Positions 10,685 to 14,370 of a stretch of DNA of 26,484 nt are shown one piece after another (the first letter of the stretch is position 1; each line of letters opens with the position of its first letter). Position numbers and translations under genes: made by a program. Source of the DNA: an uncultured Candidatus Peribacteria bacterium (GTDB taxonomy: Bacteria > Patescibacteriota > Gracilibacteria > Peribacterales > Peribacteraceae). Location of the stretch: NCBI GenBank assembly GCA_964443095.1, contig CAYUBO010000001.1, positions 1-26,484 of the forward strand, given 5' to 3'. A model generated the notes under the pieces. It did no database searches. It saw nothing but the letters and a program-made list of their open reading frames with translations, and had not been told where the DNA came from.

Positions 10685-10726
10685 GAGCCGAATTTAGCTT
10701 CCATTAGCCATTTTCCCCAAATCACC

Positions 10727-11047
10727 ATGGCAGACAGCGACCTCACAGTAACCATCCAGCCTATCGGAGATAGAGTGGTTGTACGCCCTCTTGAGCGTGA
10801 ACAGGTTACGAAATCGGGCATTGTTATTCCTGATACAGCTTCTGAAGATAAACCTCAGGAAGGAGAAGTTATTGCTCTTGGAGAAGGAAACGTTGGGAAA
10901 GACTGCATTAACCCTAAAGACTTCCTGAAGGTCGGAGACAAAGTTCTCTTTGGTCGCTACGCCGGTGATGATGTGAAATTAAAAACTAAAGATGGAAAAG
11001 AAGTGGAAGTAAAAATTCTCCACGGCGATTCCATTTTAGGAAAAGTA

Positions 11048-12785: not shown

Positions 12786-12794
12786 AAAATCCCC

Positions 12795-12824
12795 TAGACA
12801 AAGCCAAAAAGTCCACTGTATAGT
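12795..12824 (+). promoter_or_regulatory. Promoter TAGACA-N18-TATAGT for the micro-lipoprotein at 12855
   Basis: Read directly; lies just after the groEL terminator. Confidence 0.6.
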
Positions 12825-12854
12825 ATCTCCCAATTCGTTTTTCCCCATCCATCC

Positions 12855-12983
12855 ATGAAAAAGTTTATTGCAATCTCCAGCGTCTTGCTGCTCACAGCAT
12901 GCCAGGCACAGGTCGCACCGGAAGGTGAAGCACCTGAGGTAGAAGGAGAAGAGGCAGCTCAGGAAGAAGTCGTAGAAGAGTAG
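12855..12983 (+). CDS. 42-aa acidic micro-lipoprotein (not in ORF track): MKKFIAISSVLLLTACQAQVAPEGEAPEVEGEEAAQEEVVEE
   Basis: Lipobox LTA-C; N-terminus clearly paralogous to 13064..13288; has its own promoter and terminator. Confidence 0.85.
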   Translation: MKKFIAISSVLLLTACQAQVAPEGEAPEVEGEEAAQEEVVEE

Positions 12984-13006
12984 TCTTTCTCACCCTTACA
13001 GATACT

Positions 13007-13029
13007 AAAGCCCCTATTTCGGGGCTTTT
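13007..13029 (+). terminator. Intrinsic terminator after the acidic micro-lipoprotein
   Basis: AAAGCCCC-TATTTC-GGGGCTTT-T. Confidence 0.85.
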
Positions 13030-13030
13030 C

Positions 13031-13039
13031 TGTTATACT
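13031..13039 (+). promoter_or_regulatory. Extended -10 (TGt-TATACT) for 13064..14355
   Basis: Immediately after the terminator and 24 nt before ATG 13064. Confidence 0.6.
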
Positions 13040-13063
13040 CAAATCACTTAACCCCTTTGATGT

Positions 13064-13288
13064 ATGAAAAAACTCATCGCAATTACAAGTGTTTTGTTTC
13101 TAACGGCCTGTCAGGCACAAATAGTTCCCGAAGGGGCTCCTGATGAGGAACCACAAGACGGACAAGCATTTAATGAATGCGGAACTAACGGTGTTAAGTG
13201 TTCATGTAACAAGCTCGTTGCAGTAGATGACACAGCTCCCAGCAAAGGAGGTTGTGGATGTGGCAGTAAGTCCTGCAGGAGAATCTAG
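13064..13288 (+). CDS. 74-aa lipoprotein with Cys-rich C-terminus
   Basis: Lipobox LTA-C; six further Cys arranged as C-x6-C-x-C and C-x-C-x4-C. Confidence 0.85.
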   Translation: MKKLIAITSVLFLTACQAQIVPEGAPDEEPQDGQAFNECGTNGVKCSCNKLVAVDDTAPSKGGCGCGSKSCRRI

Positions 13289-13299
13289 CTACCCTCTAT

Positions 13300-14355
13300 A
13301 TGACTGAGAGTTGCCACATGGAACACGGGGCAAGAAAGAAACCTCGCCCGGATATAATCCTCCGCAGCTCCATTGCTTTAATTATTCTTTCGTACGGGAC
13401 GTATCTTTTCCTCCCTGAGATAACAGGAAGTTTCGTTCCGCTCTATAATTTCACATCCACAATATTCGAATTGATGAACAAGATGTGGTGGGGAGTTCTG
13501 CTTGGAATCTTCTTTGTTGGACTTCTGGACCAGATTCCACGCGAGTTCATCATGACAGTGTTGGGTAAGGACGGAAAAGTGAAAGGGATATTCCGTGCAA
13601 CACTTGCTGGAGTTCTTCTTGATCTATGCAGTCACGGGATTCTTCTTGTTGGAATGAAGCTCTACAAACGTGGTGCAAGCCTTGGGCAAGTGATGGCATT
13701 TCTGATAGCAAGCCCGTGGAATTCATTATCACTTACTTTAATCCTTTGGGCATTGGTCGGATTCAAATGGATGATTGCAATGCTTCTTCTTTCGATAGTG
13801 ATAGCTATCATTTCCGGATTGATTTTTGAAGTACTGACTGCGAAAGGCGTGCTCCCGAAGAACCCGAATGCGAGAGCCATTGATGAAAATTTCAACTTCT
13901 GGGGTGAGACAAAGAAAGGACTTTCAAAATTCCGCCCAACTCCCACTTGGTTTGTGAGAAGTACATTGATGGGGCTCGGAGATTCAAAGATGATCTTACG
14001 GTGGATCTTCTTTGGTGTTGTTCTCGCTGCAGCAGTACGAACATTTGTTTCACCGGAAGCCTTTGCAACGTTCTTTGGTCCGACTGCAATGGGTCTTTTG
14101 ATTACTGTAATTGTCGCAACGCTGCTCGAAGTCTGTAGCGAAGGATCATTACCGATAGCTGCTGACATACTCACACGTGCGGGCGCACCAGGAAATGCAT
14201 TCACGTTCCTGATGACAGGAGTATCAACGGATTACACTGAGGTTCTCTCCTTAAAAGAAACAACCCGATCATGGAAAGTAGCATTATTCCTCCCACTAGT
14301 AACCGTCCCACAAGTGATAGCAATAGGATTGATCTTAAATAAATTCGTATCCTAG
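13300..14355 (+). CDS. Predicted permease, DUF318/ArsP-like family
   Basis: Internal two-fold repeat LDLCSHG...GASLGQVMAFLIASP and LEVCSEG...GAPGNAFTFLMTG; about 8-10 TM; Cys/His in the N-terminus. Confidence 0.8.
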   Translation: MTESCHMEHGARKKPRPDIILRSSIALIILSYGTYLFLPEITGSFVPLYNFTSTIFELMNKMWWGVLLGIFFVGLLDQIPREFIMTVLGKDGKVKGIFRATLAGVLLDLCSHGILLVGMKLYKRGASLGQVMAFLIASPWNSLSLTLILWALVGFKWMIAMLLLSIVIAIISGLIFEVLTAKGVLPKNPNARAIDENFNFWGETKKGLSKFRPTPTWFVRSTLMGLGDSKMILRWIFFGVVLAAAVRTFVSPEAFATFFGPTAMGLLITVIVATLLEVCSEGSLPIAADILTRAGAPGNAFTFLMTGVSTDYTEVLSLKETTRSWKVALFLPLVTVPQVIAIGLILNKFVS

Positions 14356-14370
14356 GACTCTTAGGACTCT
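14353..14370. repeat. 9-mer direct repeat TAGGACTCT x2 between convergent stop codons
   Basis: Exact tandem duplication read from sequence. Confidence 0.8.

Follow-up and report, generated by a model that had tools for sequence, protein, structure and literature searches.

We analysed a 26,484-nt stretch of DNA (the window) from an uncultured Candidatus Peribacteria bacterium, a tiny marine bacterium of the Peregrinibacteria type whose assembly comprises 1.22 Mb and is 81% complete. Between GroES-GroEL on one side and a Clp-like ATPase, a small protein, Tmk and FolD on the other, the window carries two genes for small putative lipoproteins, ORF1 and the cysteine-bearing ORF2 (CysLp), and a gene for a permease of Pfam family PF03773 (ArsP_1). 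Comparison with related loci suggests that ORF2 and the permease probably form a two-gene unit for the detoxification of soft metals, most probably copper; the identity of the metal, the direction of transport, metal binding by the cysteine domain and a hand-off between the two proteins are what we infer here. The initial annotation of this DNA described the open reading frames (ORFs) accurately: their coordinates, the 27-residue mature ORF1 (from Cys16) with 10 Glu and no Lys, Arg or His, the six cysteines of ORF2 and the 11-nt gap between the ORF2 stop codon and the permease start were all confirmed (Table 1).

ORF2 belongs to a small family with six invariant cysteines

Both small proteins start with MKK, followed by a hydrophobic stretch and L-T-A-C at residues 13-16, which fits the lipobox [LVI][ASTVI][GAS]C. 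The match of both to Pfam LPAM_1 was weak (E 0.03-0.09), and the genome encodes Lgt (PF01790, two matches) and LspA (PF01252, one match), all above the cut-offs. From the signal and the presence of Lgt and LspA, ORF1 and ORF2 are predicted to be lipoproteins. Mature ORF2 has 58 residues, and its six cysteines besides the lipobox Cys16 are arranged as C39-x6-C46-S-C48 and G62-G-C64-G-C66-G-x3-C71. ORF2 had no family match in Pfam or NCBIfam, and the metallothionein (SmtA/BmtA type) and CopL (DUF1541) models were absent among the Pfam matches to E 1 of ORF2 and eight family members. A phmmer search of ORF2 against 1.84 billion representatives returned itself and one spurious linker match (a 788-aa repeat protein), a single-sequence word search returned only itself, and an ESM Atlas search returned no match of 0.9 or higher.

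When genomes from the same taxonomic family were scanned in six frames, the Cys domain turned up in two other genera. With a profile built from these hits, 17 protein clusters were recovered among 5.8 billion proteins, and ORF2 itself scored an E-value of 3e-21; all 17 clusters were unnamed or 'hypothetical', and one was labelled Candidatus Peribacter sp. We define the family by a signal or anchor followed by C-x3-G-x0-2-CSC ... G-C-G-C-(G/A)-x3-C with all six cysteines, and all six are aligned in ORF2. Conservation of the cysteines had been set beforehand as the refuting test for the initial annotation, and the result was that the six cysteines, together with G43, S47, G63, G65 and G67, are invariant in 18 aligned members. 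Within the window's taxonomic family, the profile detected the domain in 10 of 200 genomes, representing 4 of 84 genera; among 400 genomes drawn evenly across the phylum, no further one had it. Since a lipobox, a Sec-type signal (genus g97) or an N-terminal membrane segment is present in all full-length members, the Cys domain is taken to be extracytoplasmic; one fragment lacks its N-terminus. The AlphaFold2 model of ORF2 (18-row alignment) had a pLDDT of 49 and no secondary structure. A role of ORF2 as the precursor of a ribosomally synthesized and post-translationally modified peptide was rejected on account of the lipobox and the lack of modifying enzymes nearby.

Most members carry a Met/His-rich module (...MAEMM-ISVEELR-QTPEEHMKMMQ...) between the signal and the Cys domain, a module missing from the window's ORF2. 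A 78-aa lipoprotein with a Met/His module is encoded separately in this genome, in a csoR operon on contig C46; it is linked to the Met module of CysLp by profile comparison only, and BLASTP of this lipoprotein against a CysLp gave no alignment. On a metagenome contig (L038:1521-3323), a multicopper oxidase of 600 aa bears the Met/His module (QMAEMMGITVEELRSQTP...) at its own N-terminus and adjoins a 179-aa CysLp variant with an N-terminal membrane segment instead of a lipobox. The occurrence of the Met/His module fused to CysLp, fused to the oxidase or alone indicates that the two modules were shuffled independently.

The Cys protein recurs beside metal-resistance genes

The Cys protein was found in eight locus types, and six of them have a metal-resistance context, namely CsoR, cupredoxin, multicopper oxidase, an RND pump or the same PF03773 permease, as expected from the metal-related module that the initial annotation had proposed. 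The gene order is CsoR, cupredoxin, CysLp, multicopper oxidase and MauE on metagenome contig L038, and cupredoxin, CysLp and oxidase in four genomes of genus g98. In G196 (locus L027), CsoR, a Met-rich protein, the Cys protein, the permease and DsbA follow each other; G202 (L028) has CsoR, the Met-rich protein, the Cys protein and DsbA, and G200 has a CusA-like RND protein, the Cys protein, the permease and DsbA. These three genomes differ in that the permease lies between the Cys protein and the DsbA-like gene in G196 and G200, and not in G202 of the same genus, which looks like a recent gain or loss of the permease. The window itself has ORF1, CysLp and permease.

The g98 locus occupies the same place as the window locus, between GroES-GroEL and the genes for the Clp-like ATPase, the small protein, Tmk and FolD. 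In three g98 genomes (G205, G208 and G210), an orthologue of the permease comes immediately after the oxidase and before the Clp-like gene, and in G205 a CysLp fragment lies just upstream of these three genes on the same contig. A multicopper oxidase was not found in the window's assembly, at its 81% completeness. The window locus looks like a reduced version of a cupredoxin-CysLp-oxidase-permease operon that sits in the same slot in the sister genus.

The permease directly follows the Cys protein in three genomes from two genera, and a multicopper oxidase follows it in most other loci. Because the Cys domain precedes an oxidase more often, it is not a dedicated partner of the permease, and the fixed linkage of the two that the initial annotation had assumed was not borne out.

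The permease represents a CSH/CSE type of PF03773

The permease matched PF03773 with an E-value of 1e-30 (107.3 bits against a cut-off of 32.3) over model positions 6-293 of 294. Its best NCBIfam matches were the SO_0444 Cu/Zn efflux family (NF033936; 115.6 bits, E 2.6e-33) and SaoE (NF040736; 114.8 bits, E 4.9e-33), and the arsenic efflux model NF037962 gave 22 bits against a cut-off of 100. SO_0444 is required for growth under copper and zinc stress in Shewanella (PMC3219624), and the hallmark of SO_0444 and SaoE is a Cys-Ser-Cys (or Sec-Ser-Cys) tripeptide in the membrane domain (10.1101/2022.07.06.499078). The permease has CSH instead: in a profile alignment, C110-S-H112 falls on the CSC of a canonical PF03773 paralogue (TPFCSCSS) on contig C30. 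A second invariant motif, C279-S-E281, lies in the other half of the protein, and D108, C110, H112, E277, C279 and E281 do not vary among the window's permease and 29 orthologues (30 sequences). The features of ArsP, a vicinal Cys pair of the TPFCSCS type and an ars operon, were also not found, since the motif reads LDLCSHG and the neighbours are GroEL and the Clp-like ATPase. No SAO uptake genes lie beside the permease, and no search was aimed at SAO genes elsewhere.

Judged by these motifs, the permease is a distinct PF03773 subfamily. It is large: over 4,700 proteins reach E 1e-20 or better, and matches of about 60% identity occur in Peribacteria, Gracilibacteria, other Patescibacteria and Rickettsiales. 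The paralogue on contig C30 (L020:1288-2250, + strand) has 321 aa and 203 bits to PF03773, and carries a CCC triplet in its central loop in addition to TPFCSCSS; the genome keeps both the ArsP-like type and the CSH type of PF03773.

The orthologues have an N-terminus with a His-rich stretch and a Cys-Cys or Cys-His pair, followed by a polybasic segment and the first membrane helix; in the window this tail reads MTESCHMEHG-RKKPR. By the positive-inside rule, the tail would be cytosolic. The CHxxH sequence is present only with the start at 13300, and the metagenome gene callers chose 13318. We favour 13300 because the orthologues keep a Cys at the place of the window's N-terminal Cys and one of them, from g98, starts with MTESCC...KRKD. 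The N-terminal Cys/His motif noted in the initial annotation is therefore conserved in orthologues, with CHxxH itself depending on that start.

Within the taxonomic family, orthologues of the permease (surveyed at 55-67% identity) occur in 19 of 200 genomes. An oxidase lies directly upstream in five, a CusA-like RND protein upstream in five, CsoR nearby in two and the Met-rich protein in two. On metagenome contigs, the orders CopA-type oxidase, CopB ... permease; CzcB, RND, permease; and DsbA, permease, CsoR were seen, and one Rickettsiaceae permease locus has no metal gene. In a GC-rich relative (G009; L005:1248-1484, 2607-2864), the 55% identical permease has an extended His-rich N-terminus (HEHGENHEHGAH) and lies between a DUF305 fragment and a His-rich DUF2933 membrane protein, and no Cys protein adjoins it. 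Complex prediction for the permease with mature ORF2, run with alignments, gave a score of 0.00, which weighs neither way.

ORF1 and ORF2 are paralogues

The initial annotation regarded ORF1 and ORF2 as a paralogous lipoprotein pair, and our results agree. When the two proteins were aligned on the lipobox Cys, 19 of 25 positions matched, compared to 9 of 25 for the next best among 81 lipoprotein-like signals of the genome. The first 24 codons comprise 7 identical codons, 12 with synonymous changes only and 5 with conservative replacements. By the Nei-Gojobori method, the shared part has a pS of 1.0 (17 differences at 16.8 synonymous sites) and a pN of 0.09. ORF1 and ORF2 are true paralogues, beyond a shared style of signal peptide. 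The saturated pS against the low pN shows that the duplication or divergence is old and that purifying selection has acted on the N-terminal peptide in both copies. This selection is also the chief reason to think that ORF1 is translated, or was until recently; ORF1 was also called as a gene by metagenome gene callers. The pS of 1.0 (12855-12926 against 13064-13135) exceeds the value of about 0.75 expected at saturation, an excess that could reflect chance over so few codons (24) or selection that disfavours recombination between direct repeats.

The likeness fades after about 30 residues (AP-E/D-x-E). Neither a remnant of the Cys domain nor any other coding remnant was found 3′ of the ORF1 stop codon, and no direct DNA repeat was found between the two genes at seed 7, with weak similarity upstream. 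ORF1 is the derived copy without the Cys domain, an old duplicate reduced to the lipoprotein signal and an acidic tether. The 'swapping of tails' suggested in the initial annotation does not describe this history, in which the Cys tail is an ancient conserved domain of the family. In a comparison of signals, those of ORF1 and ORF2 scored higher against the signal of the g98 oxidase lipoprotein (63-75) than against most CysLp signals (27-58). ORF1 was also considered as a leader peptide with an attenuator hairpin; folding gave only a terminator hairpin (z-score -0.49), Rfam returned nothing above threshold, and this candidate was rejected.

ORF1 may be an acidic surface lipopeptide or a relic. 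It is quite possible, if somewhat short of an even chance, that ORF1 no longer functions and is a stump left from the 5′ end of a lipoprotein gene (a CysLp copy or the oxidase signal) that was displaced or half deleted, its reading frame being still open by chance. A stump would fit the finding of ORF1 in this population only, its lack of anything beyond a signal peptide and an acidic tether of the sort that serves as linker in many lipoproteins of the genome, the absence here of the oxidase expected in this slot, and ORF1/ORF2 signals that are slightly closer to the oxidase signal of the sister genus than to its CysLp signal; the low pN would also be no proof of present selection if the copies diverged as orthologues in separate lineages. 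Opposed to this are the intact lipobox, the contrast of pS and pN over the shared part, a promoter-like site and a clean terminator of its own, a start context as in groES, and the absence of coding remnants after the stop codon.

Gene layout and possible regulation

The features of the region are listed in Table 1. The initial annotation had proposed two transcription units, ORF1 alone and ORF2 with the permease. The positions of the promoter-like sites and hairpins fit this layout; in a scan, however, promoter- and terminator-like sites in the region were no commoner than in shuffles, so that they are suggestive by position only. A CCCC-N8-ATG context common to groES, ORF1 and ORF2 stands in place of a Shine-Dalgarno sequence, and TTTTCCCCA is common to the groES and ORF1 start regions. 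Most other starts in the window have neither a Shine-Dalgarno sequence nor CCCC-N8-ATG, and the genome does not use Shine-Dalgarno sequences at start codons. Metagenome contigs bearing ORF2 are identical to the window except for one base in groEL, which leaves no population variation to compare.

Table 1. Positions of the genes and candidate sequence elements around ORF1, ORF2 and the permease gene
Feature	Position	Strand	Details
CCCC-N8-ATG site of groES	10700-10727
CCCCTA box	12791-12796		overlaps the -35 hexamer of the ORF1 promoter-like site
Promoter-like site before ORF1	12795-12824	+	TAGACA-18-TATAGT, consensus match only
CCCC-N8-ATG site of ORF1	12838-12855
ORF1	12855-12983	+	42 aa, predicted lipoprotein precursor, lipobox LTAC
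Intrinsic-terminator-like hairpin, then T-run	13007-13028	+	8 bp, 5 G-C; would close the ORF1 unit
Second CCCCTA box	13011-13016		inside the ORF1 terminator-like hairpin
Extended -10-like element	13031-13039	+	TGTTATACT; 24 nt 5′ of the ORF2 start codon; putative, as read from the sequence
CCCC-N8-ATG site of ORF2	13047-13064
ORF2 (CysLp)	13064-13288	+	74 aa, predicted lipoprotein precursor: lipobox LTAC, acidic linker, Cys domain C-x3-G-x2-CSC ... GCGCG-x3-C
Permease, PF03773 (ArsP_1)	13300-14355	+	351 aa; motifs LDLCSHG and LEVCSEG; alternative start 13318
Weak terminator-like hairpin	14350-14366	+	at the end of the permease gene

The csoR operon on contig C46 (L045:785-1749, - strand) encodes CsoR (88 aa), a Met-rich secreted protein (129 aa), the 78-aa Met/His lipoprotein and a protein of at least 256 aa without a Pfam match. 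The 129-aa protein is a homologue of the protein that neighbours the Cys protein in genus g97, and the csoR promoter bears TACCCCTA twice. Upstream of csoR genes, here and in related genomes (L027, L028, L038 and L045), CCCCTA recurs as the core of a repeat. The window contains five copies of this hexamer, no enrichment over the 5.9 expected, and two of them lie at the -35 position of the promoter-like sites of ORF1 and ORF2. These boxes may be a candidate CsoR operator, a loose match that serves as a lead only.

Discussion

The following mechanism would account for these results. The permease would take metal from the cytosol by means of its N-terminal His/Cys tail, and the metal would cross the membrane through a site formed by the two invariant motifs D-x-C-S-H and E-x-C-S-E. 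ORF2 would be lipid-anchored on the outer face of the same membrane, with a six-Cys domain that is metallothionein-like and unfolded without metal. There the domain would bind exported or incoming thiophilic metal, buffer it and stop its re-entry or damage to exposed proteins. The Cys domain is a module that was found in this lineage only, and in relatives it is recombined with the Met/His module and with varied partners (oxidase and cupredoxin, permease, RND pump). A bolder version, which we hold to be rather doubtful, is that the Cys domain is an exported and tethered mini-metallothionein with an external Cu(I)-thiolate cluster, a portable adaptor for oxidase, permease or RND pump that combines freely with the Met/His module, and that ORF1 is a functional companion holding harder cations such as Cu(II) at the surface, the two lipoproteins jointly giving a two-chemistry buffer on a cell without periplasm.

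Several observations weigh against a copper detoxification unit. In two of the eight locus types, the Cys protein has no metal gene as a neighbour; it follows a MATE gene in one (G125) and only DsbA in the other (L041). The Cys domain has no detectable relation to characterised metal-binding families, and the absent fold of the model fits a metal-dependent fold and other explanations equally. The permease is far under the curated cut-offs of SO_0444 (300) and SaoE (325), and efflux and substrate are extrapolated because it lies below these cut-offs and lacks their CSC. There is no CsoR gene within the window, the resemblance to a CsoR operator at the ORF2 promoter is weak, and ORF1 was not found outside this population. 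Two further points, the neighbouring DsbA and the ligands of the permease, belong to the alternatives considered next.

A DsbA-like gene adjoins the family in four loci (L027, L028, L029 and L041), and with such a neighbour the cysteines could be disulfide-bonded instead of free thiolates. The six cysteines would then form three structural disulfides, and ORF2 would be a small knotted surface protein, for example a stabiliser or receptor of partner enzymes, for which the even number of cysteines and their place outside the cytoplasm would be suitable. We consider this improbable, since CSC and GCGCG, which are awkward for local disulfides, are typical of thiolate clusters such as those of metallothioneins and of CopY (CxCx4CxC), DsbA-like proteins are known from copper-tolerance loci (the Scs system), AlphaFold gave no compact fold, and the copper context is recurrent. 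The unit might also serve Zn, Cd, Hg, Ag or As(III) instead of copper, which is unlikely but deserves some weight: SO_0444 mutants are sensitive to zinc and copper alike (PMC3219624), the motifs of the permease join Cys with Asp, Glu and His ligands that would suit Zn(II) or Cd(II) too, the organoarsenical exporter ArsP belongs to PF03773, and the CzcB/CzcA-type RND neighbours could be Zn/Cd/Co pumps. However, multicopper oxidase, cupredoxin, CopB and a CsoR-family repressor, the neighbours of highest specificity, are copper proteins, ars or mer genes were not seen next to any locus examined, and an ArsP-like paralogue bearing the canonical CSC is encoded separately in the genome.

The initial annotation had read the lipoproteins as a surface capture device of carboxylate and thiol chelators feeding the permease. 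Uptake of this kind draws on the adjacency and probable co-transcription of ORF2 and the permease, the extracytoplasmic Cys domain and the reliance of tiny genomes of the Candidate Phyla Radiation (CPR) on scavenging. It is very improbable, and none of the comparative evidence fits it: the nearest curated relatives of the permease are exporters (PMC3219624; 10.1101/2022.07.06.499078), a presumably cytosolic His/Cys tail before a polybasic stretch is the arrangement of a metal exporter, and in relatives both genes occur together with genes for detoxification (CsoR, multicopper oxidase, cupredoxin and RND pumps). Copper detoxification by ORF2 and the permease remains the reading that we prefer.

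Among known systems, CopL of Staphylococcus aureus is a copper-binding surface lipoprotein encoded beside the exporter CopX/CopB (PMC8546587). It is the nearest functional analogue, an outer-face lipoprotein beside a copper exporter that is thought to sequester copper outside the cell. There is no sequence relation between CopL and ORF2, which has no Pfam match, and the partner of CopL is a P-type ATPase, whereas that of ORF2 is a PF03773 permease or, elsewhere in the family, a multicopper oxidase. CopL is reportedly larger and folded, unlike the 58-residue mature ORF2 without a predicted fold. Bacterial metallothioneins (SmtA/BmtA and MymT) resemble ORF2 in being short and Cys-rich, with CxC motifs and expected disorder without metal. 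Metallothioneins are cytosolic and are not known to have signal peptides; ORF2, in contrast, has only six cysteines and is predicted to be exported and lipid-anchored. PcoE/SilE, CusF, CopC/CopK and the exported Csp1 are small extracytoplasmic metal binders within copper-resistance operons; the former use mainly Met and His, and Csp1 uses Cys in a four-helix bundle. The Met/His module of the relatives resembles such Met-rich Cu(I) binders, and the window's ORF2 is without this module; the comparison with these proteins was made by their general descriptions, and no homology was detected. The permease shares with SO_0444 and SaoE the Pfam family, a Cys-bearing transmembrane motif at the same alignment position and a metal-related context, and differs from them in CSH for CSC, in the second motif CSE and in its own N-terminal His/Cys tail.

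Systems in which a copper binder outside the cytoplasm is encoded beside an exporter or an oxidase are already known, and the present case is not categorically new biology. What is new is the Cys-domain family, its modular use, the CSH/CSE permease subfamily with its copper context, and the truncated acidic paralogue. Copper handling in CPR/Patescibacteria, which have minimal genomes and, as far as known, a single membrane, is almost unstudied, and our analysis addresses the question of how toxic metals may be buffered at their surface. A small family that was formerly a 'hypothetical protein' at best now has a sharp motif and a consistent copper context, and the ORF2 peptide is short enough for synthesis, which makes the central claim cheaply testable. 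For a PF03773 subfamily with thousands of metagenome proteins, the CSH and CSE motifs and a His/Cys tail, the neighbours point to export of copper or soft metals and not of arsenic. The locus is also an example of metal-binding modules being reshuffled within one chromosomal slot.

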